Below are positions 1,874-57,019 of a stretch of 57,415 nucleotides of DNA, one piece after another (the first letter of the stretch is position 1; every line of letters begins with the position of its first letter). The stretch covers positions 25,036 through 82,450 of the forward strand of contig MQRK01240728.1 of the NCBI GenBank assembly GCA_001938485.1. Direction: 5' to 3'. A program made the position numbers and the translations under genes. The stretch is from Girardia tigrina (Eukaryota). The notes under the pieces were generated by a model, which did not search any database, had not been told where the DNA came from, and saw nothing but the letters and a program-made list of their open reading frames with translations.

Positions 1874-2217
1874 TAGATATCGGGTTGAAGGACCACAGTG
1901 AACTTACCAAAGATATTCATAGAAAATTAATAAAATGTTAATAAAAACATAAACAATAATTTGGTTATATTTTCGGTAATTTTTAATTTCAGCACTCTGC
2001 TTTAAAACGTCTCCACTTATTATAGTTTTTATAATTATAATTGATTATGAAAAATTATTATTTCAAGTGGTTTAAAAATTAATTTTAATGAGCCTCTTCA
2101 AAGTTTTTCATAAATTATATTATCATTATTATATTATATTATATAGATTATATTTTCTAAATTTTATATGAAAAAATAAAATAGAAAGAAATACACGATG
2201 GAATATTTTTAGATGAA

Positions 2218-3747
2218 ATGTCAAACATGATGAAAGAGAAATTGGATAAATTATATCAGTTGATGAACGATCAGCAAATATCCACGAAGAGTGAGATCAA
2301 TGAGGACTTCAAGTGTCTCCTTTGTAGAAGCCTTCTAAAAGACCCTTGTCAATCCGAGTGTGGATGCAACTTCTGTCAGACTTGCATTGACGGATACATC
2401 TTAGTCGGAAGCACCGGTTGTCCTGGAAATACAAAAGAATGTAAATCTTGCAACATATCAAATGTTGTTAAGGATCATAAGATGAATAAACAAATATCGA
2501 AGATTGTTGTTAAATGTCCTGTGGAAATGTGTTGTTATGAGTGTGAACTAATAAACATGGATGAGCACTTACAAAAGTGTATGGAAACTAGTGTGAATTG
2601 TATATTTGAGTGTATTGGATGCGACCGGGGACAAATTTCTGGGGAAAAGATAAAAGAACATTTGCAATTCGATCATACAATTCACAGCAAGTTGTTGATA
2701 GACTCTTTTATTAATATCAAAAATGAAATCGAATTGAAACACAATGAAGTTATTAAATTAAAAGAAAGTAATGTGAAGAAGAATAACGAAATCGCATTTC
2801 TTTTACGTGAGAATTCATCGATGAAACAAAATGTAAAGGAAATTGAGCATCAAATTGTATTATTAAAGCGCAACGATTTTTCGAGGATAAATGAAATAAA
2901 GGCTCTAAACAAAGAGGCTGAAGATAACAGAAGTAGATCTCAAGTGGTTACACAAATTGAAAAGGAAAATAAAAGAATAAATTTATTACTCAACGAAATG
3001 ATGGAGCGTAAAGAAGAGGAAATCGAAATCCGTAAACAAAACGAGAAAAAAACGGAAGCGGAGATAAAATGTTTGAAAAACCAGTTGGAATGTGCAAAGG
3101 GAGAAAAAGAAAAGGAAGTGAATGATTTAAAAGAAAAAGTCAAAAATTTGCATATTGAAGTTAAAGTATTGAAACAAAATGATACTCTAAAAACTAATGA
3201 AATCAGCTTATTAAAACAAGAAAACAAAACAATCAAAGCACAACTGGAAATATTAAAACAAAGTGACAATGAAAATAGAAAAAATAATCTATCATTAAAA
3301 CAATATATTGAAACTAATACCAAAGAAATTGAGTTAGTAAAACAAAATGAAAAGAAAATATCAAAATTTTTTGAGAAATTGAATAAAAACACCAAAGATA
3401 ACAGAAGCGACTTGAAGAGCTTGTCGGAAGAGAGTTCTCGCCTGAAAGAGATCGTCGAGTCGATCCGACTAACTATTCAGGCAGGCGGTTTTCCAATTCA
3501 AAACGTAAAACTCGAATGTTTCCATCAGAAATTTGAAAACACAGAGAAACCGGAAAATGAGAGGAAAATCGGAAGTAAACAAATGGATGAACAAATGAGT
3601 GAAGGGGGTTACGAAGAAAGGAATAGGAGAATAGTTGAACAAGTTGAGCCAAATACAGTCGGACGATTTACAAGAAATGTCATTTCCAAACAAAAATCAA
3701 AAGAGATTCAAAGGAAAATTAATTCTCTATCATATTTGCATCAACAA
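2218..3747 (+). CDS. TRAF-family protein, large exon (RING finger, TRAF-type Zn finger, long coiled coil)
   Basis: CLLCRSLLKDPCQSECGCNFCQTCI...CP RING; VKCPVEMCC..MDEHLQKC and CIFECIGC..IKEHL Zn-finger segments; about 250 aa of heptad-rich K/E/N sequence. Probable phase-0 donor GT at 3748. Confidence 0.85.
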
Positions 3748-4199
3748 GTTCTTTTAATTAATGTTTATTTTAAAAAATATTTAATTAATTAAATTTTTGT
3801 AAATAATAATATTGAGACATCTTAAAAGAGTTAGAGACATTAAATTTATTTCGACGGATCACCTGTCCTCATCAGATAAATTAATTCATGAAAAACACAT
3901 TGTAATCTTCTTGCATTATTTAAATATTTGTTATTTAAATAGACAAAAGGAAACGAGATTTGAAAAAATATATTATAGACAAAATCTATCGATTTAAACA
4001 ATCGATAAAAAAAATCATTATTTTTAATTTAATAATAATTAAAAATCATTATTTTTAATTCAACAAAAATTGAATTAAAAATAATTTATTGATGAAGTAA
4101 AGTTGTCACTTTACATATGCCCCTGTGGAAGAAGAGGAGTGTCCTGGCAAGTGAACGTCGGTTTGAGACGATCAATCGATATTGTTTTGTGTTGGTCGT

Positions 4200-6610
4200 T
4201 TATATCCAGAACGAAGGTCTTCATGTCTTCAGATCGGCGCAACACTTTATAAGGTCCTTCGTATGGTGATTTGAGAGAACCGATGATGTCCCATCTTAAC
4301 CAGACTTCCGTCTACGTTGATAATGCTGATGGAACAAAGATTTTTCGTGTCAGCTGTTTCTTTACAGCCGGACTTGTAAAGCCACGAATGGCTGTTTCTA
4401 TATCTTCTTTGGAAAAAGTCGATTGATTTTCACTGTCCAAGGTAATATCTCCCGGGAGGTAAGTGGAAGAGCTGTACAATTGTTGTGCCGGTGAGGCGTT
4501 TGATCCGGTTATCGTCGAGTTCCGCAGTCCGAGCAGTACAATTGGAAGATCGTGTGCCCACGATTGCTCTGCCGTACCCGAGTAGGTTTTGAGCGCGTTC
4601 TTTAGTGANNNNNNNNNNNNNNNNNNNNNNNNNNNNNNNNNNNNNNNNNNNNNNNNNNNNNNNNNNNNNNNNNNNNNNNNNNNNNNNCACGTTTCTTTGA
4701 AATGATTTGAGAAGAATTGTCTTCCTTGGTCAGTAATAACGATTTCTGGAGGACCGAATCGGCTGATCCACGTGGAAACGAAAGCTTTCGTTACGGCAGT
4801 GGCTGTAATGTCACGGATTGGAATTACTTCGGGCCAGGACGTGTGTCTATCAATAATTGTTAAAATGAATCGCTTACCGTCGACGCTGGGAAGTGGTCCG
4901 ACTATATCCATGTGAACGACTTTAAATCTTCCTCTATCTGGTAATNNNNNNNNNNNNNNNNNNNNNNNNNNNNNNNNNNNNNNNNNNNNNNNNNNACGTG
5001 TGTCTATCAATAATTGTTAAAATGAATCGCTTACCGTCGACGCTGGGAAGTGGTCCGACTATATCCATGTGAACGACTTTAAATCTTCCTCTATCTGGTA
5101 ATGAACCCAGCTTTACTTTAGTGTGCCTGGAGATTTTGTAGGCTTGGCATCTGTGGCACTCTCTTGTCCATCGTCGTATTTCGGACTTCATCTTAGGCCA
5201 AACGTATATGGAGCGGATGAGGTCGATTGTTTTGTTGGCGCCGACATGTGCAATTCCGTGGAGTCTGCAAAATTTACGGTGGCGAAACTTGACCGGCAAA
5301 ATTATTCTTTTCTTGTGATTGGTGAGGTCGATGAACAATCCATTCTCCGTTCTGACATTAAATCTATTCCCTGAGAGTAATATAATCTTCTCTTTTTGTT
5401 GCTCGTCTATGATATCGCTCTTTGAAAGTGTTAGGATCTCCATTTCATTCTCATCATTCTCGTCCATTCTAGAAAGAAAATCGGCCACAATATTTTATGT
5501 TCCTTTGCCAAATTGGATTTGAAAGGTGAATTGGTTGAGAAACTCAATATATCTCCATTGTCTGTTCGATGGATCCTTCATTGATTGAATGTAAAGAAGT
5601 GGCTTGTGATCGGTCAATATTTTGAAACTGGATCCTTCTAAATAATGCTTGAATTTCTTGACAGCCAGGTAAATCACGAGAAGCTCTCTGTCAAACGTCG
5701 AATATCTTTTCTCTACATTGTTCAATTTCCTTGAAAAAAATGCGATCGGTGCAAGCTTGGAATTGATTTCATGGTTGAGGCTTGCTCCAACAGCGATACC
5801 AGAAGCATCAGTGCAGAGAATGAGAGATTTATTCTCGTCAAATGGCTGCATGGTGGTGATCTCTTTCAATTTCTGTTTGATTGCATTGGTAGCTTCTCGT
5901 TGGGAGGTGTTGTATACAAGTTTTTGATTTCCTTTTGATGCAGTGAGAAGAGCATGCAGAGGTGCAATAATTTGTGACAAGTTGGGAATCATCCACTGGT
6001 AGAAAGTTGCTGCACCTAGAAATCCTCTAAGAGATTTTATGTTGTTCGGTTCTGGCATGTTAATTATATTATCAATCTTTTCTATGATAGGTTTAACGCC
6101 TTCTGCGGAGATGTTAAATCCCAGGAACCGAACTGTTGGGGAGCGAAATTTACATTTATCTATATTCATCTCCATGGAGGCCTCAGCTAGTAGATTCAGT
6201 ACTGTGTACAAGTGGTTCTCGTGGTCTTCTACATTGTCTGAAAAGATAATTATATCATCAATATAGGAACACGCGAAATCTTGACATCCATGGAGCAGGG
6301 CGTCCATGTGGGGTTGAAACATTTGGGCTGCGTTTCTTAGGCCGAATGGCATCGTAGTATACTCGAATAGTCCGAACGGTGTGACAATTGCCGTCTTTGC
6401 GATATCTTTTGTGTCAATCGGAATCTGGTGGAAAGCTTTCTTTAAGTCGAGGGTGGTATAAATCGTCTTCCCAGATATTCTGTCTAGGATGTCTGAGATT
6501 CTTGGCAAAGGGTACCGGTCCGGTTTTGTGACCGAATTCAGCATTCGGTAGTCTCCACAAGGTCGAAGGTACCGTCGGTCTTTTTTACCAAAACTAACGG
6601 GGAAGCCCAA
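4200..6610 (-). pseudogene. gypsy pol (RT, RNase H, integrase) with frameshift and premature stop
   Basis: RPCGDYRMLN, YIDDII, TDASG, YSTFDRELL, TDHKPL, H..AHVG...CHRCQ, VHMDIVGPLP, ITDQGRQF, YEGPY. Frameshift near 6570; in-frame stop at 5495-5497. Confidence 0.92.
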
Positions 6611-7870
6611 GGGCTTGTGCTTCTTCTGATCGTACCTTGGAGTAATAATTGATCAAATTCTGCTCTTACCGATCTCAAAGCGTGATTTGATAATTTTCTG
6701 ACACGCTGCGCGATAGGAGGACCGGTTGTTTCGATCCGGAACGTTTGATTGCTACTGAGCGCGGTACTGACGGTGGCTTGCAGGTTGACCTTGTTGGATC
6801 CCATCATAGTGAAGCTATCTGTAAAAATTTTGTTACGGCGACAATCAACCTTAATGTCTTCATGAGCCAGGAAATCGGAACCGAGAATCGCTCGTTGAGT
6901 GTCAGCGAGGATGAAACGCCAAGAAAACAGTTTGGGTGAACCGGCCAAACGGAAACTGATCGAGTGAGTTCCAGAGGTTGAAATTTCTTGACCATTTACT
7001 GAAACAAGCTTTTGAATTGCAGAAGTGCTGTCGGCTCTGAATTGTTTTGAAGGGAGGATGCTGACATCCGCACCCGTGTCGATCAGAAATTGGATGACTT
7101 GACTGTCGGAAACCGCTGGAACGGTGAAAATCGAAGATAATTGATCTGGTGGCTTGTCGAGGGTTGGAAGTACCGGAGTGATTCCAACCCTTAGTCTTTT
7201 CCCGAAGGATTCGGGGGGGCTCCAGGTGCACGGCTTTTGACATTTCTTAGCCGCTTGTCCATACCTTCGATGATAAAAACATAAACTAGAAACCTGTTGG
7301 CCAAGATTGATTTGCTTTTTGAGTTTATTGATTTCAGCGGTCAGGAGCGCGATTTCGGTGGCGTAGGATCCGGAATTTGAAATTGTCTCACTCGAATTGA
7401 TGGCAACTGGAACTTTGATATTCAACAGATCATCAGCTAAATATGCCAATTCGGTCAGCGAGAGTGCTTTTTGGATATTCAGGAGTCTTTGGACATCGGT
7501 CGGCATTGCACGAAAAAATGCGATCCGCAAAATATTGTCATCGCTGCTTGTGGCGCCCAGGCAACGGTAGTGTCGCTGCAGGATTCTCAGATATTCTGAG
7601 GGGCGGCGGTCGCCAAGATTGTTGTTGCTGAATATTTCATCGAAATGGACTGAGACTGGAACTTTGCGACTGTTGATAATCGCATGCCGAAGATCAGAGA
7701 ACGGTGTTGCGGAATTTGATTCGAAGAATTCTTGGAACTCCGTTAATATCTGAGGAGACAGATTCGCAGTAAGATGCAAAAATTTAGTCTGTTCCGTGGA
7801 GATGTTGGAAATTCGGAATATCGCATCGATTTGCTTGAATCAGAGCTCAATATTGTCGAAGATTGGAAGA
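6538..7870 (-). pseudogene. gypsy gag plus aspartic protease
   Basis: LPIF..EL*FKQID (W to TGA), LGDRRPSEYLR, CFYHRRYGQAAKKCQKPC, FLIDTGADVSILP, ILGSDFL. Confidence 0.9.
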
Positions 7871-8523
7871 ATTTTTGGGCTTGCGTGGTTGCACTCAAGC
7901 GAACCACTTCTGACACCATTGTAATCTTCTTGCATTATTTAAATATTTGTTATTTAAATAGACAAAAGAAAACGAGATTTCAAAAATATATTATAGACAA
8001 AATCTATCGATTTAAACAATCGATAAAAAAAATCATTATTTTTAATTTAATAATAATTAAAAATCATTATTTTTAATTCAACAAAAATTGAATTAAAAAT
8101 AATTTATTGATGAAGTAAAGTTGTCACTTTACACACATGATTTATTTCTTAGGGATTCAGAAATGTTTTTAAAAATTCTTAAAATAATGTTAAATTATTC
8201 ATGCCAATGAAAATGAAGCAATTTTTTTTAAAATGTAATTATTTGATGATTGTAAAATAAATTATTTATATAAAAGCTCAGTGTTTTATCTACGTAACGA
8301 TCAAAGTTTACTGTGATCAAATCTTTTTCTTGCTTTTGCATGGCTTATTTTTTTAATTAATGCATAATAACTCCGGCTAATATGAAATTACAAGCCAAAA
8401 ATAAACAGCGTCTGCAGAACTGCTATACACACATATATAGATATAATATGAATAATATGATAGAATGATTGCAGACTTTTAAAATATTATTTAACACATG
8501 CATATAAAATATATTTATTTTAG

Positions 8524-11015: not shown

Positions 11016-11510
11016 AAATCAAGAACAGATCTGATGACAATCAATGAGCAGATTAGAGAATCGAGAAGAGAACTGGAGGATAAAGTAATCAAACTAGAAG
11101 AATATTTGGACATGAAAGAGAAATTAACGGTATGGGATATTGGTAGAATCCTAAGGAATTATCACAATGATTGGATGAACAGCTCTTATTTTTATTTAAG
11201 AAATAATCCTTACAAAATGGGCCTAAAGTTAGAGTATAGTAAATTAGAACTAAGGGTTCAGTTAGTGATCTTTTCCAGCGCAACTACCAAAGAGGTCAAT
11301 TGGCCCTTCAAAGCAAATGTAACAATCGCCGTCAAGGACAAATTCAACTCCAATTTAGCAATTTATGCAAGACGCTTCTGTGAAATCCAGAAGCCGGAAT
11401 TGAGTTCCTTTGAATCAAGCGATTTCTTCAAATTTAAGAAAGATAAAATGTTTTTTAAAGGGTTAACAACAGAATCGTTTTGTATTATAACGTGTGGATT
11501 CGAATTCTAA
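11016..11510 (+). CDS. TRAF gene, terminal exon with MATH/TRAF-C domain
   Basis: W..I, SSYFY...PYKMGLKL and NWPFKANVTI motifs typical of TRAF MATH domains; stop at 11508-11510; AATAAA near 11556. Confidence 0.8.
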   Translation, partial: KSRTDLMTINEQIRESRRELEDKVIKLEEYLDMKEKLTVWDIGRILRNYHNDWMNSSYFYLRNNPYKMGLKLEYSKLELRVQLVIFSSATTKEVNWPFKANVTIAVKDKFNSNLAIYARRFCEIQKPELSSFESSDFFKFKKDKMFFKGLTTESFCIITCGFEF

Positions 11511-17165: not shown

Positions 17166-17431
17166 AAAATTAAAATGGTGTTATTTTTGTTTAATGACTA
17201 AATTACCATTTGATTCAAAGAAATTAAATTTATTAAAAAAATATAATTAAAAAAAATAATTAAAAAATAATTTATAAAAAAATAATTAAAAAATAATTTA
17301 TAAAAAAACAATTTATAAAACGAGTCTAAAAATTTTTTTATTGAATTGGCGGAGCCTTTTTATTAAATTGGCGGAGCTAAAGCTTTTATTGAATTTTTTA
17401 AATCAATGTCAAAAAAACAGATCTCTAAAAA

Positions 17432-17980
17432 ATGGATAAATCGGATGGAAACAACATTATAGAAAATTATTATAATTATATGGAATTTAAAGATTTTTCT
17501 ACCAATTTCGAAATTTTTTATAACAATTTTATTAACAATTTTAATATCGGGAACCAAGGGCTCCATCCTTATAACGATTTTGTTAAAAATTTTAATAACA
17601 TTTCTAATAAAGGGGGCGGAGCTAAAGCTTTTATTAATGGATTTATTAATGGATTTATTTATGGTTTTAATAATAATCTTATTAACGAATTTGTTAACGA
17701 ACAATATCATGTTAACTATGAAGAATCAATTTGTGAAGAGGATAATCATAATCATATTGTATTCTATTGTATTCTTTGCAATAAATATTTTAAGGGTTGT
17801 CGAAAATTCAAAAATCATTTAAAAACTCGTAAACATTTTAATAATGAAACAAAATTAAAGGAATTGAAAAAAATATATGAGTCCCATTATACAAAATTGG
17901 TTGAAGAGTTTAGACTGAACAGACTGGAAGTTTCTCCTCGGTGTCACACTAGTCCGTTTAGTAAATATGAGAAGATGTAA
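17432..17980 (+). CDS. Asn/Phe-rich protein with a single C2H2 zinc finger, probably part of the Polinton-like fragment
   Basis: FYCILCNKYFKGCRKFKNHLKTRKH; intronless; lies next to the adenain ORF. Confidence 0.6.
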   Translation: MDKSDGNNIIENYYNYMEFKDFSTNFEIFYNNFINNFNIGNQGLHPYNDFVKNFNNISNKGGGAKAFINGFINGFIYGFNNNLINEFVNEQYHVNYEESICEEDNHNHIVFYCILCNKYFKGCRKFKNHLKTRKHFNNETKLKELKKIYESHYTKLVEEFRLNRLEVSPRCHTSPFSKYEKM

Positions 17981-18236
17981 AAAATTGACGGAGCTGACGC
18001 ATTATGTGTAAAGAAATTTTTATTTGTAAAAAATATTAATGTTAAAAGCTTTAAAACGGAGTTTCACTCTAGCTTCGCCAATTTATTGTGATAAAAAAAT
18101 ATTAGTGATAAAAAAATATTAGCGATAAAAAAATATTATTTGTAAAAAATTTTTTCAATCTATTTTGTATTTGGCATCATAGCAAATAATTGTTTTACTC
18201 TTTCATTTAATATATTTTTTTCAATACTTAATTTAT

Positions 18237-18713
18237 TTATAGGAGAATCTTGAGCATGAACTTTTTTTCTAAATTAGCTACAATAATTTCCAACTGATTT
18301 AATCTTTTTATTTCATCACTTAATCGTTTTATTTCAGTATCAACATATTCTTTATTAACTATATGTTTGGGATTATCTGGTTTTTGGAGGCAACTCGCTT
18401 TTCCAGTAATTATTACATCAGTGGCAATTAATAATTTTTTAATTGTACATTCTTTTACAATACACTCTTTTTCAACTAAAAGGTTGTTTTCTACTTTTAG
18501 AATATTGTTTACAATTAAAAAATCTTTTTCCGCTTTTAGAATATTGTTTACAATTAACTCATTACCAATAATCAGATTATGTTTTACAGTTAAGTCAGTC
18601 ACAGAATCTCCAGTTTCATTAATATATCTTTTATCACAAATATTGACAACATCTGCACCAAGTCCATGTAAATCAGTTGATCCAATTTTATTTATAGGAA
18701 TATATGTACCCAT
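18237..18713 (-). CDS. Polinton/virus-like fibre-type ORF
   Basis: Repeated LIVNNILK beta-like units, P.NPKHIVNKEYVD motif (resembles xxNKxYVD of viral fibre proteins), C-terminal coiled coil; tandem with the protease gene. Confidence 0.5.
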   Translation of the reverse strand: MGTYIPINKIGSTDLHGLGADVVNICDKRYINETGDSVTDLTVKHNLIIGNELIVNNILKAEKDFLIVNNILKVENNLLVEKECIVKECTIKKLLIATDVIITGKASCLQKPDNPKHIVNKEYVDTEIKRLSDEIKRLNQLEIIVANLEKKFMLKILL

Positions 18714-18833
18714 TTTTATATACGTTAAAATAGAATAATTGGAATATGAGATTTGAAATAATTATAAAATAGAATATTATTAAAATAAAATAAAAAATAA
18801 AACAAATAAAATAAAATAATTATAGCAACCAGC

Positions 18834-19301
18834 TTATAATAATTCTTTAAAAGTCTCAAATAATTCAGAAACCACCTCATCAGGTTCGGCTTCGCCAAAG
18901 GTATCATTGCTACCGTTCCTGCTGCCATTTTCCAATTTATATAAAACATATAAACATAATTGTCCACAAATTCTTGATCCAAATGGTTGTACTTGGGTGG
19001 AATTATATTCTAAATTGGGAATCAATGAAAATTCTTTTATAGGCACAAGGCCAAAGGAGTCAAAATAATAAATCAAATTGTAGTGATATAAAATCCAATG
19101 AGTACCTTTTTGGTTGTCAGTTTGATAATTTGAAATTATGTTATCAATTATATTATCACTATTCAATTCATCAAGTTCATGTTCATTTCTCATTTTAATT
19201 TTAAAATCAAGATTTAATAATTTTCCAATTCGATATAAATCAAAATTAGTAGTAGTTCCTATTCCAAAAGTTTTTAAAAAATCTAAAATGTTGATATCCA
19301 T
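18834..19301 (-). CDS. Adenain-type cysteine protease of a Polinton/Maverick or adintovirus-like element
   Basis: GTHW, YYFDSFG and QVQ..GSRICGQLC give the H-D-Q-C catalytic arrangement of adenoviral/Polinton maturation proteases. Confidence 0.88.
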   Translation of the reverse strand: MDINILDFLKTFGIGTTTNFDLYRIGKLLNLDFKIKMRNEHELDELNSDNIIDNIISNYQTDNQKGTHWILYHYNLIYYFDSFGLVPIKEFSLIPNLEYNSTQVQPFGSRICGQLCLYVLYKLENGSRNGSNDTFGEAEPDEVVSELFETFKELL

Positions 19302-19764
19302 TTTTAATATACAAATTTAATTGAATAGTCAAAAAAATTTTAAATATAAAGAAAAAAACCTTTTGCAAAATGTGTAAAAATATTATTTATTAAAATCTCC
19401 AACAAAAAGTTAGAAAAAAATACTCATATTAACCACAAAAAATTGAAAAAGTATATATTAAAAAAAGTATCTAAATCTATATGAAAAAAGTTTTTTTCAA
19501 TAGTATTTTTTATGCAAAATGTTCATAAACATTATTTAATTAAAATCTCAAACAAAAAGTTAAAAAAATATTCATATTAACCACTAAAATTAAAATATAT
19601 ACAGTTTTAAAAAAAACATATTGCTTATTAATTTAACAGTAATTTAAGCTAATTTTTTTAGAGATTTCATTTTTATGTGATTATATTTCAATTCAAACTT
19701 TATTATTTATACATTTTTGTGAATTTTATCTATTATTAATTCATATTTTATCCAAACTACTTAA

Positions 19765-23185: not shown

Positions 23186-23689
23186 TTAATATTCAAAAAT
23201 TGCCTTTCTTTTCATAAAATATATATATATATATATATGTATATATATTTCTTCATATTAACGTTTGTTTTAATATTTTGATCGTTCATATTATTGCGGT
23301 AACTCCGTAGATGTTTTTAAATGAATTAGCGATAATAGTGTAATGAATTGAAAAATAAAATTATTCACGACTATCGATTTTTATCGTTATTGAAATAAAA
23401 TTAAATGTAAACTGAATCTCATCCACCGAAATCTAATCGGAGAATTTTAGAGAAATCTAAAGTCAATCACAGGAACATAAAGCCGACGAAAATTGTAATG
23501 TTATTTGACAAGCGATTCATCAATTATCAGAGTACGGGAAGCACTGATTCTTCCTTGATATCGGCAAAGTCGGCTCGAACGACTTTAAAATCGAAGTTAT
23601 TGAAGAAAATCCAAGAATCTCTAATATCTCCGTCAATTTCCGAGTCAATAACCAAAGAAGAAAGATAAATGATAGAATTCTTCCTGTGG

Positions 23690-23866
23690 CAGGTGCACCC
23701 AGAAACTGGAATCTGTGGCAAAGCCATGCCGTGAATGATGCGTTTGAGCGGATTGCAAGTCAGGCCAGTCGATTGGTGCATTACAACAAGGAGTCGACGA
23801 TCACGAGCAGGGAGATCCAGACGGGAGTGAGATTGCTGTTGCCGGGAGAGTTGGCTAAGAACGCCG
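23690..23866 (+). pseudogene. H2B: Histone H2B internal fragment with frameshifting deletion
   Basis: [13 protein letters not shown], then (after a deletion) [45 protein letters not shown]. Confidence 0.9.
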
Positions 23867-24479
23867 CAAGCCGAAAAAGAAATACGGCCCTCTTTAGGGT
23901 CAAAATTTGTGATTGGACAGTAAAACTGACTAAAGCTGATAAAATCAAATTGGCTTTATTCGACCACAAAAGTATGATATATGTTTATTTATATTTACAT
24001 AATAATAAATTAAATAATCATAATAATAATAATGATAAAGATTATAATAAATTAAATGATAATAATAATAAAAATAATATTAAAAAACATGATGACAACG
24101 ATCTTCCTCTCCCCATTTGACGGCAAATAATATCAAAATAAGCTTCCACTGCGCTGCTGCCGCAACAACCGGTCGCAATACCGGCCACCATTGAACCCGG
24201 GACAACCCAGGTAAAAATAATGTTTGGGAGACTTGATTTGCCCAATCTTTCAGCCATTAAGCACAATACTCCTCTTAAAACTATAAATGGGTTTTAAATT
24301 TTGATTTTGAATTGAGTTTTTTTATTTATATTTCGATTTTTTATTTAAATTTGAAACCTGATTTTAGTTCGAAATAATTTATTTTGAAATTAGTTATATA
24401 ACTTTAAAACATCGTCTTGTGTTTATTTTGGTAAACTCTATTTTTATTTTCCAGTGACTCGATACAAATATTGATATTC

Positions 24480-28586: not shown

Positions 28587-29693
28587 TTTCAGCTCGACAA
28601 AATTTGGGATTACCGATGTAATTTTATTTGTTGTTATCTTAATATTATTACTACTATTGATTTCATGTTTTCACTATTCAATTATTTTTGTTTATAACTA
28701 TTCGTTCCGTGCATAAATATATTTGTGCGTAGTCCGTAAGTTGTCGTAGTTAACCGTCGCCGCCGTCCTATTCATCATGCCCCACTTCTCGGAATTATCC
28801 GGTTCGTCGTCTGAGGAAAACGACGCACCGTCGCTCTTGATCCTCGACGTACGATCGATCGACATGATCGCATTCGTTAGTGGGGACCTCGTTACGACGT
28901 GGCTCCACGTTTGGGCTCCGGAAGTCTCGAGCTGTCGGGCGAGATAATCTCGCGCAGATCCATTGAAAATTCCGTTCGTATTCGATTAGCAAAATTTGTT
29001 TTATCAACAGTGATATGTCACTTAATTGACACATTTAAACAAACGGAATTCTTTCTAATTTCTTTTATTATCAATATATTTTAATCGATTTTATCATGAC
29101 TTGGAAATTATTGTTTTATTATAGGACCAATTTCACGACATTTTATATTTTAATTTAATTTTATTTTTTTTTGCTTGAGAATCGCAAAACTATATCGAGT
29201 TCGTTTAGGAACTATTTCGACTCTAAATTTGAATTCCAATTTAGGTTATAAGCTCAAAATTAGTAGTCATGGATCTAAATCAGATAAAGTTCTATGAATT
29301 CAATACAAAAAAATTTTTTTTTAATTTTCAGTTTTAAAACTCAATTCAGGTGAGGATTCAGGTTTAAGTCAATTGCGATTCTACAGAATTTAGTTCGAAT
29401 ATTTTACGTCTGTTGCTTAATGAATTTGATTGATTGAGAGTCGACGTGAGAGGAGGTTTTGAATAAAATTTTCGAACTACGACGCGGATACTTATATAAT
29501 TACTAATTTCGTCCTTAATAATAATTTCGCAGTTGAATATTAATTTTCTAAGAATTATGGTTAAGAATTATGTAGTTAAGAAAGCTATAAGGGTTCGATT
29601 AATCAGTGTTAATTAGCGAGTCGAATTAATACCCGTCAAACTGCGAGCACTAGCTTTAGAACACTACTTGACGATGACTGGGCTATCGGAGTC

Positions 29694-30270
29694 TGTAACG
29701 ACCGCGGTCAATAGATGTTTATAGCTACGTCATTAACGTTGTACGAATTAGACAAAAGGCGGATGCTGTTGATGTTTAGGTCCGATAACTTCTGAGTGAT
29801 TAAATTTCAGTGACCACATCAGGACCGCGTGGGTTAATGATTGTCGAACTAGTGTAGGAAGACTGTCAAAACATACAGTGCCACAAGTCAATATGAACAC
29901 AACAGCCAAGCGCACTAAGCCGCATGCAAATATAACATTGCCATAAGTTAATCCTACATATCACACACGATANNNNNNNNNNNNNNNNNNNNNNNNNNNN
30001 NNNNNNNNNNNNNNNNNNNNNNNNNNNNNNNNNNNNNNNNNNNNNNNNNNNNNNNNNNNNNNNNNNNNNNNNNNNNNNNNNNNNNNNNNNNNNNNNNNNN
30101 NNNNNNNNNNNNNNNNNNGTCCGACCCAGAGTAGATGAGGAGTTAAGTTAAGGAATAAGATAATCTGATAAATGGGTCGTGGCTAACCCTTAATAGTCAC
30201 TGGGGGCTCAGAGTCTGCAAAAATGTTTTAAACATAAGGGTCGTGACATTTTTGGGGGCTCAGCCGGGAT
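29694..30270 (+). mobile_element. LTR 3' end and tRNA-Pro primer binding site
   Basis: GGTCGTGACA ends at 30248. TGGGGGCTCAGCCGGGAT at 30253-30270 matches the canonical Pro PBS TGGGGGCTCGTCCGGGAT at 16/18. A candidate LTR start TGTAACGACC lies at 29694. Confidence 0.7.
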
Positions 30271-30398
30271 TAGCGAGTTTCTCGCCCCTAAATAGTTAAG
30301 ATTTCAATAACTAATAACGACACATAGTTAATTATGTAATAGAGTATGAATTATAGTAATAAAGTATAATAAAATAATCGTTAATGAACTTATAGAGA

Positions 30399-30770
30399 AT
30401 GGAACAGAAACAGAAGCCAATAGCAGTGGTAAGACCGATGCCACGTGATCCAGTGATCGTCGAAATCGAAGAGCTAATTCGTGCGTTAGCCAAACTGATT
30501 CTCCAAAGAAAGGACGACCAGNNNNNNNNNNNNNNNNNNNNNNNNNNNNNNNNNNNNNNNNNNNNNNNNNNNNNNNNNNNACCCGAGTTAAAGGCTCTCA
30601 ACGAACACATAGAAGGGAAATTAGAAGAATTCAAACTACGAATTCAACAGCTGAATCCCAATGAATATCCCGACTTTTGGGGATGTTATCGAGAACTCTG
30701 CAAACTACAAAGTCAAGACGAAAGGCCGACTGAAAATTTATGGCATGGATACGGCTATAGCGTCGTATAA
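30399..30770 (+). CDS. Small helical ORF A downstream of the PBS (unknown function)
   Basis: 123-aa ORF with an internal N gap; AG shortly before the ATG; PRD..IVEIEELI motif. Confidence 0.55.
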   Translation: MEQKQKPIAVVRPMPRDPVIVEIEELIRALAKLILQRKDDQXXXXXXXXXXXXXXXXXXXXPELKALNEHIEGKLEEFKLRIQQLNPNEYPDFWGCYRELCKLQSQDERPTENLWHGYGYSVV

Positions 30771-30882
30771 CCGACAATAAACTATTATTTTTTTTTCTGT
30801 TTCGTGAAATAAATATTTTAGTGATTAATTTGTCTATAAAGTAGTTAGATAAAAGGATTAGTTTAATATAGTATATTAATAG

Positions 30883-31236
30883 ATGCAGACAGAACCCAGA
30901 GACGCCCGGCAACCAACAATTCAAGAACTGTTCGAAGAGGCCGATCGATTGAAACACCGACTTCAAAGACTAGAAAGCTGGCAACATGATCGAGAGCAAC
31001 GGTACAACCAGTACAACCAACGAGTTAAAAAGTTAGAAGCCGATAAAGCATCCAAAGGAAAAATACAAATCTACCAAGAAATAAGAAGAAAGGCTCATGT
31101 TGGTATTCTGATCGCGCAGGATTCAATATTCCGAACCCAAAATGATACTTTAGTTTGTTTAAGCAAAATTAAGGACATATTAACTGCAGATCAAACCCAA
31201 TTAACCGGGGGTGATGTTGATAAAACTTTTCTTTAA
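30883..31236 (+). CDS. Small coiled-coil ORF B (unknown function)
   Basis: 117-aa ORF; TAATAG immediately before the ATG; PRD...TIQELFEEA motif. Confidence 0.55.
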   Translation: MQTEPRDARQPTIQELFEEADRLKHRLQRLESWQHDREQRYNQYNQRVKKLEADKASKGKIQIYQEIRRKAHVGILIAQDSIFRTQNDTLVCLSKIKDILTADQTQLTGGDVDKTFL

Positions 31237-31330
31237 TTCTGTTCAAATATATATATATATATAATTGTAGCTTAATCGTGATAAAATAGTTAATAATTTT
31301 GGTAAATAATACTCTATTTGTTATTCTAGC

Positions 31331-31598
31331 ATGAATCTAGAAGAGAGTCCTGCACAACCACCAAAAAACATACCACGAGAAGAGATGTTCCGAGAAGTTG
31401 AAGCGTTACTCGAAGAGGCCATACTTACAACCGCTGAGCACTACAAATGCGCAGAACATAGGAATCGACTAGTCAGGGATATACGCCAGATGAAGAATGT
31501 GGGACCAACCAGTATCCACACCCTACAATTATGGCAAGGCAAAGTCGAGAGCGCCAGGAAGAAGGTAGACGAGCAACTGGGAATTCGAATACGAAACA
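31331..31598 (+). CDS. Small helical ORF C (3' end replaced by a formin fragment)
   Basis: TTCTAGc before the ATG; PREEMFREVEALLEEA motif. Confidence 0.5.
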
Positions 31599-31925
31599 AA
31601 CAATGGTCTGAATCTTCTTCTGGATGTTTTGAGCACTCTTACTGAATCTCCTATCAATTGCGACATTTGCCTTGTATGTATTATGGCTTTTGTCATTGTC
31701 GGATTTGGATTCTTCAGAGTTTTAGAAAACGATAGAGCACTTCTATTGATCGCCAAATGTTTCAAGCCACAGATCCAGGATACGATGTTCTATGCAGTAG
31801 AATTGTTGAGGACGTTTGTAGTTTATAAAGAATATAGCTATCAGAAAGTGCTTAATGCGTTATCGAATGCGGCGAAAATAAATAATTACGCTAATCGGTT
31901 TTATCCGTTAATTGAATCTTTTATC
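31599..31925 (+). pseudogene. Diaphanous-related formin GBD/FH3 (DID) exon fragment
   Basis: GLNLLLDVL...CIMAF...FG...VLENDRALLLIAKCFKPQIQDTMFYAVELL...QKVLNALS..A......RFYPLIESF parallels DIAPH GLASLLDIL...CLKAFMNNKFG..MLE....ILLLVRAMDPAVPNMM..AAKLL...ERVLEAMT...RFQPLLDGL (recalled). Confidence 0.75.
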
Positions 31926-32000
31926 CGTTAATCTATTGAATCAAGACCATTTTCACAACCACGTCTATTGTCCCTATAGAATAATAATTATTATTATTAT

Positions 32001-32225
32001 GAAGTCTTTGAGGGTAATTAAATAAATTAAGAATCAAGATTTATTTTATAAACAAAATATAGATAAGTATTTATGTTATCGAAGCTAAGTTTTTTATGAT
32101 ATCTTAGATAAAAAGATATGGCTCAATTGTCGTGATTGAATCGATAACTATTGTTGCTAAAATAATGAACTTATTCATGCATAAATAATTCAATTTAATA
32201 ATGAAACATTTAATTTAATTTTAAA
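32001..32225 (+). repeat. Dispersed AT-rich repeat, also at ~43849-44065
   Basis: AAGTCTTTGAGGGTAATTAAA...AAGAATCAAGAT...ATAATGAAACATTTAATTT is shared. Confidence 0.8.
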
Positions 32226-32240
32226 ATAAAGAAGGCGCTG

Positions 32241-32402
32241 TACTGACAGAACCGTCTCGATGCAGGCTATCCAGATTGACCACGTCCTTAAGTGGATTCA
32301 TTCACGTCCGTCCAAAATATTTCATTTTAATCATAGTATACATTGAGCGTTACACACACACATATATATATATACATATATAAATAATTATTATAAAAAC
32401 TT
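32241..32402 (+). repeat. Dispersed repeat, also at 37356-37513
   Basis: TACTGACAGAAC.GTCTCGATGCAGGCTATCCAGATTGACCACG...ATTATAAAAACTT is present twice; related AT-rich blocks at ~32700, ~33000 and ~37590. Confidence 0.85.
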
Positions 32403-32598: not shown

Positions 32599-34800
32599 CA
32601 CTCATCTGTTTGCATTGAGCAGTATGCATTGAGCGTTACATACACACACACATATATATATATATATATATGTAAATAAAATATTTAGATAAATTTAGAT
32701 ATAAAATTTTTAGATAAATATTATTAATAAAAAATTGATTTATAAATGAAAACTTGATATTATTTATTAATAACGAAAATTTGTAATTTATAATAAATTG
32801 ATTTTCAGCAATATAATTAGTAAATTTGTGATACAAGTCGTCATTTATCAAGAAAAATAGCATTTAAGTAGTAGCAATCGAATAGTTGTCAATATTCGAT
32901 AATAATTTCGAGAAGGCCCTATATGTTTTACTTTATTACGGTTATACTTTATTAAGGTTAAAAATAAAGCTTCCGTTACTTAAATTTTCACAAATAAAAT
33001 TTTTAGATAAATATTATTATTAAAAAATTGATTTGTTGGGGTTCATATAAATATAATAAAATTTTTTTACTTTTATTTTTTTGAAGTTATTATTTTATTA
33101 TTTTATTTTTCTGAATTTTGTATTTTATGGTGTAAATATTGAATGAATTTTAACATTATATTTTTGTTCTTGTGAATTTTTAAATATGTTATTTTGCCCT
33201 TGACTTGTGTTTATTTATATGTTATTTATAATTTAATTTAAAATAAAACTAAATTTTACATACATTATTTATTCAATTGTATTATTTTTATATTTCTTTA
33301 CGTACTATGCGTTCTCGTCACGCATAGTGCGTCGTCATTTTTTCTTTCTCACGGAGTTGTTTACGGCCACACATTCATTACGCGCATTCTTATCAATGGC
33401 CACGCGATTTCTCACGCGATTTTATTTTTCTCATACACATTTTGGTTTCTTCTCACGCGTGTTTTGTTTGCGTTTTCGTCAGCTTAAGCCACGCGATTTT
33501 GAAATTCTTATTGTTAACGCAGTTATATAAGCGCAATCAAGAAGTAGCAAAGCGCACAAAGTTAATATTCGCACAGGTAGGAGATGGATGTTCTTAAAGG
33601 CACAAAATTAATATTCGCACAGATTTTGCACCGAATTATCGACGAATTTCAGTACTTGCGAAGAGACCATTTCTGAATTGCTGAGGAGGACAAATTTTGC
33701 TTCGTGGCCAAAAGAGATTAATTTTTATATCGAAGAGAACTGTTGAGTCAAACCGACTTATTTTGTTATTGCTGGTATTGAGGGAGAATCAATTAACATC
33801 GCTGTCAAGGAGACTAAATCTTTTTATCGGTGAGGGTCCACTCAATTATTGTTATTTCTTTTACTAAAGTAATATATTTTAAAATTTATAATCTTAATTG
33901 TAATATATTAAATTAATAATTTTTATTTATAATTTTAAAATCCTTGATAACTGGAGAACGGTGATTCCCAGTTACATAAAATCATCACAAAACACACAGG
34001 GACATTGTTTCATATTTTCTTTTAACAAATTGTATTGTGTACAAATTTTTTATAAATATTTTAATAAATATTTTATAAAAAAAGTCTTGTGTTATTTGAT
34101 TATTTGTGATATTTATTTCATTGATTAAATTTATAATTAATACAATCCTTTTAATTTACACAAATTGATTGACTGGAGTAAATTTTAAACAATTTTTGGA
34201 GTTATTTTATTATAGTTCTCCTTTGTTACGACAATCGGTAAATATCTATTTGACCCTTCGTACGTAACAAAGTTGGTGCCGCGAACCGGGACGAAAAATT
34301 CCTTGGTCGCGCATATAAAAATTGAATTCTCTCTAAAGTTTAAAGTCATTTAAAATTATCGAAATTTGATAAAGTGATAAATTAAATTGAAGTATTAAAT
34401 AAATAAATTGAAAAGAGAATATTAATTAATATTAATAAATTGAAAAAGAATATTAATTGATCTAAATTTGAAAGAGAATATTAATTGAAAAGAGAATATT
34501 GATTAAAGTTAATATTATTGATTGTCCCAATTGAGCTAGGTCTTGAGCATATTAATTTTTACAAGTTTCAGATGCATATTGAGGTTAAGTTTTGATTAAG
34601 GTATCAAACAGTCAGTCTTCTTGGAGGAATCGTTGATTGTGATTTATTTTTATTGAATTTTTTTGTGTTGTCTCAATTAATTTTGATAATCTTATTGATT
34701 TCATTGTGTTGTTTGAAATTATTTTGAATATTGAATTGATTTTTATTGAATTAATTTTTGCATATTTTCTATATTCGTGCAACGCACCTTCACAAAACAT

Positions 34801-34968
34801 ATGACACATAATAAGAAAAAACAAGATAACCAGGAAAACATTGAAAATAATTCAAGAGATAATAAACCTACATTAGGGCGAAAAATGACAAAAAGTTTTG
34901 ATTATATTCCACTGGATCCCTACAACGGGAAACCAGAGCATTTAGACAAATACTTTGAGAAATATTGA
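34801..34968 (+). pseudogene. gag N-terminal stub
   Basis: IPLDPYNGKPEHLDKYFEKY resembles the L..(F/Y)xG....L..F...(F/Y) start of Ty3/gypsy capsid; first ORF after the PBS. Confidence 0.5.
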
Positions 34969-36055
34969 AATCACTCGTACCAATTTGGTAACGGAAGAAC
35001 AAATTGCTACGAAACATCCACTTGGCTATCGCATAACCGAAGAGAATACGATATTTTCCAGATTAGTGATGATCGACGCATCATCAAACATTTTTTCTTT
35101 TATTACACAATCAAATAAATACTCATTTAAGATATGTGATAAAACGACATGTAAGATAGCACCTTTTTATCAATTTGCACGTACAGAGATAGATCTCACT
35201 ATTCCTTCTGAGATAAGAATCAAAGCCTATCAACATAACCAATTGCAATTACAATTTATCATAAAGATTATCCAGATACATGACAATTACATTAAATCAA
35301 TATGCAACGATCAGAAAATCTATAAAAATTTAACATTTTACATAACACATGAGTGTAAGCTTTCATTATTATTTTCTGTTTTTAATTCCACTTCCGAAGA
35401 TGATAAGTTTCAGGCCGACCCGGCGCAATATCACATCAGTTTTACATTTATTCCTTACGCCTTGTTAACTGATATAGGTATTAATCTTGATTATTCCTTT
35501 CATTTTTGTTTTGAAATATGTACACCACAATTTGATGAACAATTTAACACAATATCCTTCAGAAACACAACCACATTATTGAACTTTCTAATTTATCAGT
35601 CATCTGACTTAGTATTATCATTAAAATTGACATGGACATACAACAAATAATCATTTATACCAGGTAAAGACATGCATGTGCAGCAGATTGAGTATGCCCC
35701 TTGGAAGATACTCATTATTTCGAATGATATTTTTGATAAATTTGATGTATATCAATATTCTATCCAACTTAAGAAACAACACATAAACATGTATACACCC
35801 CAAATAACTCGATCTACCTTATTACCAATCAGTAAAGGGCTAATATACAATATAACGCCCAGTCAACAAGAGGAATTACATAACTGGCCTTTTATCATGT
35901 ATGGTATAGGTGTTTTTGGATTGATTTTCTTATTAATATTCTCTTTAATTAAAAGTTGTAAAGAATATCAGAAAAAGATAATGACTTTAAACTTATATCG
36001 TACATCCTTCGGGCAATACCTGCCAGGGGTGTACGTAAACGTAACACAGGTATAA
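34955..36055 (+). pseudogene. env-like type I membrane glycoprotein, 5'-truncated, one premature stop
   Basis: ORFs 34955-35650 and 35672-36055 share a frame. Cys-containing ectodomain with sequons NLT, NST, NTT and NIT; TM segment WPFIMYGIGVFGLIFLLIFSLI; short tail ending YVNVTQV. Confidence 0.55.
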
Positions 36056-36170
36056 AATTTCAAATCGAAAATAACAAGACAAATTAAAGTCTATAATTTT
36101 AAATTATCATATTTGCTTATTTTTAATTATTAGTATACAACCATTCACCGACTATTAATTCCCGTTTAGA

Positions 36171-37360
36171 ATGTTCAAGAAACCCAATTCCAAGATGCCT
36201 CGCTTCGATGTGACGAGGTATCATCAATATACTCCTGTCGATGAGCGGAGGAATATGTGCAGCAATTCGAGGACAGCTCAATTGCCTTCGCTTTACGGGT
36301 TAAGGAAACGCGTAGTAGAGGCAAATAACCAGTACATGGTCACACCTGTCCATTTACGAGATAAGAGAACCCAGAGAAATCTTTCTGAGGTTCAACGCCT
36401 ACAACAAGTTGAGGATGAGAAACATGCCCTGATAGAAGATATGAATATATGAATATATGGGACAAGCCGTACCACTCCCTTCAGATTGGCACCCTTCCGC
36501 ACCAATACAGTTAGAGGTGACCAAATTATTCCAGTTTCAAGTAACGCCGCACTACTACCCAAATATGTTTTACCTATGGATGCAATATGGATTGCCTTGG
36601 AATAAACCCATTACTAAGACGAAATTAGAGTACCCGGCGAAATACCCGAACAAATTGGTATATAATACCTACAACAAAAGGATGGTTATCCTCAAACGCA
36701 GTGTCCCCGGACGAATGACCATATCGGATATCATGGGAGTGTATAGACACTCATCTCCCACAACTTTTAATCGACCTTTCTACAGGGTCTTAGCTGTATA
36801 TATCCATGCAGCATCGACACCTCTTCAGATTACAGACGGGTCAACCGCTATTAAATTGCCGGAAAAGAAATCCATCGAAATTCAAGTCTTCCGGGTGAAG
36901 GACATCGATGAAATCGAGCAATTAAACGACATCAGTCTCAACATCAGACGACGTGGGAATATTCGCTGTAGAGTTCTTCCTACAGGATGATCTCTCTAAT
37001 CCGTTCCTCGAAAACTCCTATCTGATCATCGAATCAGATGTGAACATATCGGACACCATTATCAAACAAAGATGTTCATTCCTCAGAAAACCCCTGACTG
37101 AAAAGGAAATACAAAACCGAATCCGTGTCACGGAGAGAGAATTTGCCGTAGGTACAGACAAGAAAGACCATTTAGTTTCAGTCGCGTTCCTAAATTATCA
37201 CGGCGCGGTCCTCATGCACACCTTGGTGCATCCAAGATCACGTATCCATGACTTTGTTACCTTTTGTCATGGAATTAAGGATTCCGACGTACGTGACGCA
37301 ATGGACGAGTATCACGCGATTGCCGAAATCCACCGACAATTACAAGGGAATATACTACTG
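36171..37360 (+). pseudogene. Frameshifted ORF ending in a REX4/ISG20-like DEDDh 3'-5' exonuclease domain (truncated)
   Basis: EREFAVG....LVSVAFLNYHGAVLMHTLVHPRSRIHDFVTFCHGI..SDVRDA......AEI...LQGNIL parallels REX4 DCEMVG..LARVSIVN..G..LYD..V.P...V.DYRT..SGI...L..A......EV...L.GRILVGH (recalled). Confidence 0.7.
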
Positions 37361-38349
37361 ACAGAACTGTCTCGATGCAGGCTATCCAGATTGACCACGT
37401 CCTTAAGTGGATTCATTCATGTCCATCCAAAATATTTCATTTTAATCATAGTATGCATTGAGCGTTAAACACACATATATATGTACATATATAAATAATT
37501 ATTATAAAAACTTACTATTATTTTTATTTTTGGAAAATACTTTATTAAGGTTATCAATAAAGCTTTCATTACTTAAATTTTCACCGCTAAAATTTTTAGA
37601 TAAATATTATTAACAAAAAATTAATTTATAAATGAAAACTTGATATTATTTATTAATAACGAAAATTCTCCATAAGATAAATAACGATTCAAAGATTTCA
37701 AAGTTAAATAAAATTACAAAAGTTCAAAATAAATTTATCGTCTCTCAAAAATACTACCAATAAACTATGATCACAAATCGATTTAATCTATTTCCACTTT
37801 CAAATTCGCACAAACATTAAAAATACCACTAAATGAAACAAAAATCACAAAGCAATCGACTCAATGTCACAAAAAATTCTACTTAGTTGTAACAAAACCA
37901 ATGACATCGATCCAATTCGACAATCGACCAATCAAAACGCCGAACAATGACATTCATTTTTATTTTGATGAGTCATTTCATTGGTAATGAACATTTTTGT
38001 AATAATAATCATGAATTTAATTCAGATTCACTTCAACCTTTATTTTATATATTTTTAAATTTAATACTTTTTTATTTATAGATATAATAATTTATATAAA
38101 AAGACAAGCAATAAAATTTTCAGTCATTGTCATTTAGTTACTACTGAACTGAATGACAATTCTAGATAAAAGACATAGAAAGATAGAGATCAAGCGGTTT
38201 TGCGGTGTAAATAATGATAATAATTTAAATATAATATTTTTTAAAAATCGAATCCCGAACATAATCTTTCTTTACATAAAATCTCTAAATTTCGTCAACG
38301 TACATTTGTCGCTTTGACTAAAGATTAAGTACATAATTACACACGTACA

Positions 38350-55418: not shown

Positions 55419-55944
55419 GTCGTCAACGCCGTATTCAATCTTTATATCAATTAATTGATAATTTAAACTTCTCCCAATTTTTCTAAATTTTCAAAAATCG
55501 CGATTTTCATTTCAGACATAACTCTAACATCTTTTATAATCCGTTGCTTCGGCCCGATATTCAGTTCAGCAGCAACTAACTGCTCGTAAGACCATTGTGG
55601 ATCGTGATTGGCGTCATTTTTGAAAAACGTTTCTTGTTTAGTCGGAAAAAATTTATAATCCACAGGAATACCGATATTTCTCTTTAAAAAAGATCCTGTA
55701 GCGATCCTTCTCTTGACCCACTCAATTGGAATCATAATTTTTTTAGCAATAAAACTAGCATCGGAATGTTGCTTAATAAAATGACTTTTTATTCCATCAA
55801 AAAACAATATGAGTCACCGCTTCGCCTTCCATCGAGTAACTTCACACAGTCACCGTCGGTTATTTTGAATTTGGACACAATCAAGCACAAACCATCAAAA
55901 TACGTTATTTCATAAACCATCTTCGTTTTTCCCTCAATCAGCAT
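55419..55944 (-). pseudogene. PAICS: PAICS (SAICAR synthetase domain) fragment with frameshifts
   Basis: LIEGKTKMVYE, GIKSHF, MIPIEWVKRRIATGSFLKRN, ETFFKNDANHDPQWSYEQL, AIFENLEK, LIDIKIEYGVD. Confidence 0.9.
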
Positions 55945-56392
55945 TTTTATAACAATTACAAATTTTCTCGTTACTAATTGTTTGTAAACGACAATTTGTT
56001 AGATTAAATTTGTGTATGTTCGTTTGTGCATTTTACTAATTGTTAAAATTAGATACATATTATTATTTATTAGTCTACTATCATTCTAAACAGGTTCCTC
56101 AAACAATATTTGGTTTGGTAAACCTGTTTAGTTCTGCTTTTTTATAGTAAAAAATAATCGATTCATTTCACTAGAGACCGAAGGACGAATCTTTTATTTT
56201 TTTACATATATCTTACTTAATAAATGGAAATCAATTCTATACTCTCGTTTTCTTTGTAGATCTGCTTTGTGAATATGTTTTAAATAATTTGTTTTAAATG
56301 TCAAAACCATACAAGAATGATTTGCAAAACAAAATTGTAACAGAAAATTTTTCAAAAATATTACAAGAAATATGTCACTTAATATTTCCTAT

Positions 56393-56776
56393 AAGGCAGC
56401 AGGCACGCAAATTACCCAATACCGGTTCGGTGAGTTAGTGACAAAAAATAACAATATGGGCCCTAGTGGTTTCATAATTGCAATGAGAACATTTTAAATA
56501 CTTTATCGAGTATCAATTGGAGGGCAAGTCTGGTGCCAGCAGCCGCGGTAATTCCAGCTCCAATAGCGTATATTAAAGTTGTTTCAGTTAAAAAGCTCGT
56601 AGTTGAAATTGAGGAAAAAGATGGTTTGAAATCTACGATTGATAGCTATCTTGTCCTTCGACGTCGTGTATATCTTTGATGCTCTTTAATGGGTGTTGAG
56701 GATGACCGACAAGTTTACTTTGAAAAAATTAGAGTTCTTAAAGCAGGCTTATGCTTGCATATTGTTGCATGGAATA
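56393..56776 (+). rRNA. Isolated 18S rRNA fragment (pseudogenic)
   Basis: AAGGCAGCAGGC.CGCAAATTACCCAA, GGAGGGCAAGTCTGGTGCCAGCAGCCGCGGTAATTCCAGCTCCAATAGCGTATATTAAAGTTG, TTTACTTTGAAAAAATTAGAGT; flanks are not rDNA. Confidence 0.95.
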
Positions 56777-57019
56777 TGCAAACATTTCAAATACATTCCA
56801 GAATCGTGCATATTGATAAATTGTTGTCTGTTGATTAAAATGTTTCTTTAAAATCAGAACAAAACATTTAAATAATAAATAAAAATATATGGAAAATAAA
56901 ATTTTGTTGTTTTATTTTTAAATTAATAAATAAAAATATATGGAAAATAAAATTTTGTTGTTTTATTTTTAAATTTTGTCCGGTATTCTTCGAAGTTTCA
57001 ACTGGCAACCCTAAGTATG

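Follow-up and report, generated by a model that had tools for sequence, protein, structure and literature searches.

Upstream accessory ORFs are already known in retroelements, and so is the use of a spliced leader (SL) by one retrotransposon mRNA. In Ogre, the extra ORF lies upstream. A Burro-like element has an upstream accessory ORF in one species, and Burro is present in thousands of copies (PMC6431247). The Burro upstream ORF encodes a MATH/TRAF domain, and the element itself has a gag-env-pol polyprotein of ~4,900 aa, paired LTRs and a length of more than 30 kb. Six gag-env-pol elements of S. mediterranea are listed with neither a tRNA type nor LTR coordinates after a search extending 3 kb around the ORFs (PMC13524379). 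Passages of PMC8532177 and PMC11410931 add no structural detail. In Cer1, the accessory mRNA is spliced and takes SL1 (PMC3315495), and the spliced accessory mRNA is also described in PMC10309623. The extra ORFs of bdelloid LTR elements typically come from spliced messages (PMC5408684).

Here we describe a locus in a window of 57,415 nt, the whole stretch of DNA analysed, which is AT-rich. An LTR end and a primer-binding site (PBS) are followed by three small ORFs, with a TAG 0–3 nt before each ATG. We read this locus as what is left of the 5' end of an LTR element of the Ty3/gypsy type, present in high copy and bearing at least three accessory genes between the PBS and a missing gag-pol, with a probability of about 60%. 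By analogy, the element is probably of the planarian Burro kind. A planarian is also the likely host, as suggested by the AT richness, the TRAF-like ORFs and a triclad-like 18S fragment of the window, although the motifs of this fragment gave no match in a published supplement. Both are very high-copy LTR elements of an AT-rich animal genome with accessory ORFs outside the polyprotein, as Burro/GYPSM1 is described (PMC6431247, section 7). The polyprotein is absent from the window copy. The same section mentions neither an array of ~120-aa coiled-coil ORFs nor acceptors. The S. mediterranea elements listed without LTR coordinates are indirectly consistent with a long 5' region.

The other systems differ as well. 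Cer1/CERV makes one accessory mRNA, from an ORF after pol that shares the gag N-terminus (PMC3315495, PMC10309623). Ogre has a plant host and one or two larger ORFs, with no operon-spaced array (PMC6431247). Bdelloid elements resemble the locus in placing additional ORFs on spliced messages, but theirs is one ORF3, placed after pol and in many cases encoding an enzyme or an env-like protein (PMC5408684). The SL operons of flatworms and nematodes share the ~100-nt intercistronic spacers and an AG near the ATG (PMC8629364, PMC12582326); however, they hold host genes and not retroelement genes, and SL addition is only a candidate here. An acceptor-fronted ORF array between PBS and gag, or an operon-like cassette of this kind, was not found described in the literature searched, with subscription journals and Repbase outside the search; the figures and supplements of Grohme 2018 may already show these ORFs.

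The LTR end and the primer-binding site

The 3' part of a high-copy LTR (R/U5) occupies 29816–30248 on the + strand and was delimited by a rise in sequencing depth and by its terminal motif. In the public runs, the depth increases from below 2,400 to 29,000–40,000 at the bin starting at 29816 and peaks above 530,000 at 30188–30311. A gap of 146 N lies within this part (29973–30118). The LTR-like end CGTGACA (30242–30248) closes with the terminal CA at 30247–30248 and is followed by four T and then by the PBS, an 18-nt stretch at 30253–30270 (+), 4 nt past the LTR end, which we take to be tRNA-Pro-like. The combination expected of an LTR, a CA end with a tRNA-type PBS within a few nucleotides, is thus present at 30242–30270. 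A tRNA scan of the window found no tRNA, and the PBS table searched for this site held no matching entry.

U5 pairs with the LTR-end/PBS junction in a predicted hairpin at 30195–30275 (+). Its RNA fold reaches −27.1 kcal/mol (z −3.78), and none of 200 shuffles is equally stable. We notice that words of the LTR-end/PBS region occur twice inside U5 (30174–30212 and 30238–30263), and that a similar word is found at 57345 on the minus strand.

Just past the PBS, a consensus scan located a candidate splice-donor-like site of the GC type (30273–30278, +) with 4 of 6 flanking matches. None of the sites scored in the readable part of the leader (30119–30398) is a GT donor, and the 146 N may hide another donor. 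For the start of the LTR, an inverted LTR end at 29694 is a candidate only. A repeated stretch at 28824–29071 (depth 6,000–20,000) lies upstream of a low-copy segment; the LTR may in fact begin there, its middle being specific to a subfamily.

Three small ORFs behind candidate acceptors

Downstream of the PBS, three ORFs follow on the + strand. ORF1 (30399–30770, 123 aa) is a single frame through a gap of 59 N, ORF2 (30883–31236) encodes 117 aa, and ORF3 reads as 104 aa in the window (31331–31645). The coordinates confirm the order seen in the first-pass annotation, an LTR end and PBS and then three small ORFs, each with its own stop. The AT-rich spacers of ~95–110 nt reported there measure 112 nt between ORF1 and ORF2 and 94 nt between ORF2 and ORF3, with a GC content of 19–20%, and both are free of ATG. 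Six very short uORFs precede ORF1.

The ATGs of ORF1, ORF2 and ORF3 stand 3, 0 and 1 nt behind a TAG, respectively. Candidate acceptor 1 (30393–30395, +) has an average pyrimidine content, and in most of the matched depth of the public runs it is separated from the ATG by AAA. Candidate acceptor 2 (30880–30882, +) abuts the ATG of ORF2 and has a second AG 9 nt upstream. Candidate acceptor 3 (31327–31329, +) is pyrimidine-rich and lies behind 38 nt free of AG. Ranked by pyrimidine content against 2000 YAG sites, acceptor 3 reaches the 91st percentile and acceptors 1 and 2 the 30th. The initial claim that each ORF sits behind a splice acceptor therefore holds for the position of the TAGs, while only acceptor 3 has the pyrimidine-rich context.

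A YAG occurs 0–3 nt upstream of 139 of the 1827 ATGs in the window (7.6%) and of 11 of 38 starts of ORFs of at least 80 aa, or 8 of 35 without the cassette ORFs. From the latter fraction, finding it at three of three starts has a p of about 0.01 for a feature selected post hoc; the excess at ORF starts arises because an in-frame TAG often defines such starts.

A possible poly(A) site, AATAAA with a U-rich tract (30776–30806, +), begins 5 nt past the ORF1 stop. The hexamer is common in the window (2.9 per kb), so that the hint at 30776 is weak. It occurs in one of the two spacers, and neither AATAAA nor ATTAAA is present between ORF2 and ORF3.

An abundant family and a broken copy

Four public sequencing runs were compared with 28700–32400: X1 and X2 from organism A, X3 from organism B and X13 from organism D. 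From the run types, X1 and X2 were guessed to be DNA and X3 RNA. Runs X4–X10, which shared 5–7% of the words, did not enter the comparison. The cassette is a very abundant, diverged repeat family. It is matched by 3748 contigs in X1 and 3667 in X2, most of them less than 95% alike. The summed depth over the ORFs is ~200–840 times that of the lowest flank bin, and the LTR-end/PBS depth is ~4700 times that bin in X1, where depth is no copy number. With the same reading of depth, the LTR-end/PBS bin stands ~10–20 times above the ORF bins, which indicates that the LTR is commoner than the interior. In X13, only 25 partial reads matched, and the cassette was unseen in ~1% of that run.

Linkage of the PBS to ORF1 elsewhere, the kind of linkage suggested earlier as a check, is seen in organism B. 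A contig of 217 nt covers 30232–30457 with 24 differences and joins the PBS to ORF1 in an independent copy. Other contigs of the same run match ORF2 and ORF3. The linkage of ORF1 with ORF2 and of ORF2 with ORF3 in other copies is given by continuous depth; no listed contig crosses a whole spacer.

The window copy breaks at ~31580. The similarity of ORF3 to a metagenome protein of 133 aa (P0001) ends at 31579, and the remaining 50 residues of P0001 match nothing in the window. At the same place, the depth in the public runs drops ~100-fold, with the break estimated near 31574. The genuine part of ORF3 is thus its first 83 codons (31331–31579, +), and its last 21 residues are foreign, a spurious tail added by the sequence past the break (31580–31645, +). 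Of the three ORFs of ~100–120 aa originally described, ORF1 and ORF2 stand, and ORF3 is a truncated chimera. Further on, 32232–32300 belongs to a short repeat of very high copy, the flanks of which agree across X1–X3.

Since the copy is broken inside ORF3, the absence of gag cannot be judged here, and as the copy is a stub, the array may hold further genes. The earlier remark that the PBS is not followed by gag is correct for the window copy, where no gag or pol linked to the cassette was found, but says nothing beyond the break. In whole copies, gag probably lies further on. The missing gag/pol would also suit a non-autonomous LTR derivative (LARD/TRIM-like), in which the small ORFs are all of the coding content and the element is mobilised in trans, and the depth of ORF3, which differs about two-fold from that of ORF1 and ORF2, suggests modular subfamilies. 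We consider such a derivative clearly improbable, given that the copy is broken inside ORF3 and that the coding constraint described below is easier to account for in an autonomous element.

Homologs and coding constraint

Profile searches retrieved metagenome homologs for two of the ORFs. P0001 is 88% identical to ORF3 over the first 83 aa, and both start at the same Met. P0003, a protein of 124 aa, is a homolog of ORF1 with the same start and its own end; it is nearly identical outside the gap and supplies 20 residues across the 59 N. P0001 and P0003 end separately. No homolog of ORF2 was found, with three candidates of 64–205 aa examined. The homolog searches for all ORFs covered proteins of similar length. 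P0001 as a query returned only itself. A repetitive insect protein (P0002) aligned with E 6e-8 in 11 stretches and was rejected as a repeat artefact.

Comparing the window copy with the majority of matched sequences, we considered the best-supported 40 of 496 substitutions, 14 of which lie in the ORFs. Nine of these 14 are synonymous and none creates a stop, compared with 28% synonymous changes expected from the observed spectrum (p 0.0045); in ORF2, all three listed differences are synonymous. Among the best-supported 12 of 45 indels, several of them from one contig, only one falls within an ORF, where it preserves the frame, even though 73% of the stretch is covered by the ORFs. Because of the synonymous excess and the avoidance of the ORFs by indels, ORF1–ORF3 look protein-coding at the sequence level.

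These results bear on the least favourable reading of the locus, namely that the ORFs are exons of one host gene, decayed pieces of gag or chance frames. It would suit a short-read-type assembly with N gaps and ORFs that match no family. However, the homologs keep separate starts and ends, which, together with the constraint, argues against all three variants, and the high copy number and the lack of any gag-like Pfam or fold match also speak against them. We regard this reading as very improbable. The exon or split-gag case, named beforehand among those that would overturn the cassette, is contradicted by the separate ends of the homologs, and the view of a genuine accessory cassette in an LTR element is backed by its high copy, its PBS linkage and its coding constraint.

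Further searches assigned no family to the ORFs, in line with the first-pass annotation, which had recognised none. In Pfam, neither the ORFs nor the homologs had a match that passed the cut-off, and P0003 against PDB sequences had a best E of 0.22. The best ESM Atlas scores, 0.76 and 0.79, were below lead level, and exact look-up found 0 of 10 window proteins. Metagenome and viral contigs, scanned by pattern and by protein, yielded no related locus; their single match covers 28 residues of a phage-like contig that is otherwise unrelated and was discarded as chance.

Relationship among the three ORFs

The motif PR[DE]x5[IV][EQ][EA]L is in register near the N-termini of all three ORFs, as had been noted. 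The final Leu in ORF1 is specific to the window copy, and Gln takes its place in P0003 and in most of the matched depth. In 5 of 6 settings, the best ungapped three-way block coincides with this motif, and the shared N-terminal stretch amounts to 16 residues. At width 16, 0 of 150 shuffles of the window proteins score as high, against 8 of 150 (11 of 150 local shuffles) for the homolog set; over widths 16 and 24, the counts for the homologs range over 3–11 of 150. The p value with homologs is about 0.02–0.07.

This block is one of the points in favour of the three ORFs being ancient tandem duplicates of one acceptor-plus-ORF unit, which would be compatible with the accessory-cassette reading and which we judge to be close to an even bet. 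P0001 against ORF1 also gives a BLASTP E of 3e-4 over 27 N-terminal aa, and the three ORFs are of similar length. In addition, the AlphaFold model of ORF2 (pLDDT 84) is a predicted two-helix hairpin with helices at 13–52 and 58–109, the model of P0001 (pLDDT 74.8) is a hairpin with helices at 16–53 and 59–117, and in both models the hairpin sits behind a short Pro-containing arm.

Against duplication, pairwise BLASTP among the window ORFs is not significant (E 0.38, 0.82 and 0.087), hhalign assigns a probability of 0.6%, and no DNA similarity was detected among the three ORFs. The local score of ORF1 with ORF3 is 52 (shuffle p 0.012), and an unrelated coiled coil of the window reaches the same value at its best. 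Likewise, the helix ends of the ORF2 and P0001 models are ~9 residues apart in motif register, and at width 12 the homolog set picks a different block. Of the original proposal that similar ORFs arose by tandem amplification, the short shared N-terminal block remains, while similarity over the ORFs as a whole is not significant.

The predicted folds were also compared with known structures. Foldseek against PDB and viral structures gave no match at E 0.001 or better and no gag-like fold match. VIA-align reached a best Z of 11.2, with many ties among generic hairpins. Since the fold matches only such generic hairpins, the rows for ESCRT-III, prefoldin and secretion-system proteins are not taken as function and were rejected.

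How the cassette may be expressed

Behind ORFs of 120 codons, ORF2, ORF3 and gag would be out of reach for a scanning ribosome, so we infer separate subgenomic mRNAs. Splicing or trans-splicing at the acceptors, as first proposed, was not borne out by the joints at hand: none of the seven listed from the public runs is an RNA joint at 30396, 30883 or 31330, and X3 contains no splice joint. Meanwhile, the 24 loose ends shown of 630 include no leader-like end at the acceptors, where X3 is the only run guessed to be RNA. A loose end at 30396 reveals that a diverged subfamily keeps the TAG just before the ORF1 start.

One contig of X1, guessed to be DNA, joins 30269 to 30398 at the start of ORF1, with a side of 21 letters and the intervening letters unseen. 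It may derive from a spliced, reverse-transcribed copy that used the donor-like site at 30273, or equally from a subfamily whose leader differs. We favour alternative cis-splicing from a donor in the leader by a small margin, as a possibility that is still less likely than not; it is how extra ORFs are usually expressed (PMC5408684).

Spliced-leader resolution of ORF2 and ORF3 seems somewhat unlikely. In its fuller form, a polycistronic LTR transcript would be cut into capped monocistronic mRNAs by SL trans-splicing coupled to 3' end formation in the spacers, and the element would be a retrotransposon operon, a doubtful possibility at present. The same-strand ORFs are 112 and 94 nt apart, within the operon criterion of <300 nt. 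These distances match the ~100-bp peak between trans-spliced genes of Macrostomum lignano (PMC8629364) and fall below the 300-bp threshold used for parasitic flatworms (PMC12582326). S. mediterranea is known to trans-splice a leader (PMC12582326), the accessory mRNA of Cer1 receives one as well (PMC3315495), and the present host is presumed to be capable of it. The AATAAA with its U-rich tract after ORF1 and the lack of a GT donor among the scored leader sites also fit. In contrast, the shown loose ends include no leader, the ORF2–ORF3 spacer has no AATAAA or ATTAAA, and an upstream cis donor outcompetes the SL (PMC4558846). In this locus, a donor-like site follows the PBS, and the N gap may conceal a second one.

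An absence of splicing is less probable still. On this view, the accessory genes are real and the AGs incidental, and expression would come from internal promoters, from reinitiation or from shunting on unspliced RNA. Acceptors 1 and 2 are unremarkable, the YAG frequency at ORF starts is inflated by in-frame TAG, six very short uORFs precede ORF1 and X3 is without a splice joint. Yet acceptor 3 is strong, and the TAG before ORF1 is retained in the diverged subfamily. Animal ribosomes reinitiate poorly past ORFs of 120 codons unless a viral transactivator is present, which also counts against incidental AGs. We therefore rate this alternative as distinctly unlikely.

A model of the element and its significance

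In the accessory-cassette reading, the LTR would drive one transcript through the cassette, and this transcript would be processed at the AG before each ATG into separate subgenomic mRNAs. The products would be small coiled-coil hairpin proteins without an enzymatic signature. By analogy, they could be adaptors or regulators serving the element, for example by helping to export or package its unspliced RNA in a CERV/Rev-like manner, or could modulate host pathways as other Burro cargo does; of the roles considered this is the most likely, but it is a conjecture that is less likely than not.

A bolder version combines several of these steps and is rather unlikely. Between its PBS and gag, a giant retroelement would carry coiled-coil genes that duplicated long ago and are arranged as an operon, with the SL cutting the LTR transcript into capped mRNAs. 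How much accessory product is made, and whether genomic or subgenomic RNA is chosen, would then be tied to SL-active cells, such as stem cells.

In planarians, giant retroelements account for a large and poorly understood share of the genome and carry uncharacterised cargo. The junctions 30396, 30883 and 31330 are exact and testable, and the family is so abundant that RNA data already available should suffice to decide between the routes. If the SL route is true, the element would be an operon-organised retroelement and a new way to express many small genes. If cis-splicing is true, it would have a plan like that of complex retroviruses with the accessory genes ahead of gag. By either route, the cassette defines three protein families that lack annotation and evolve under coding constraint.

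Other features of the window

A second LTR end and PBS (Phe/His-like) at 34263–34291 is followed by an AT-rich leader, and the element extends over 34263–37468 (+). It has a gag-like start at 34885 with a stop after 27 codons, and then several small ORFs, some of which are acceptor-fronted as well. The ORF at 35651–36052 has a hydrophobic C-terminus, another lies behind TTTAG-A-ATG (36171), and that at 36926–37465 has a weak exonuclease match (E 0.002). Both LTR stubs of the window end near one repeat, at 32241–32386 and 37356–37501, the two copies being 92% alike.

A separate gypsy element occupies 4315–7935 (−), with a PBS-like site at 7918 and gag-like, protease, RT, RNase H and integrase pieces. 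At 2185–3789 and 11016–11507 (+), we observed a RING and coiled-coil ORF and a MATH-like ORF, both TRAF-like and with weak Pfam matches, representing a host gene or retroelement cargo. A cluster of small ORFs at 17429–19316 includes a C2H2 finger and is possibly a Maverick remnant; one of its ORFs presumably resembles a Polinton/adenovirus-type protease. The window also contains a degenerate histone-fold fragment (23548–24117, +) and a SAICAR synthetase fragment (55466–55813, −). The only Rfam match in the window is a deleted eukaryotic 18S rRNA fragment at 56278–56830 (+), which we take to be triclad-like.
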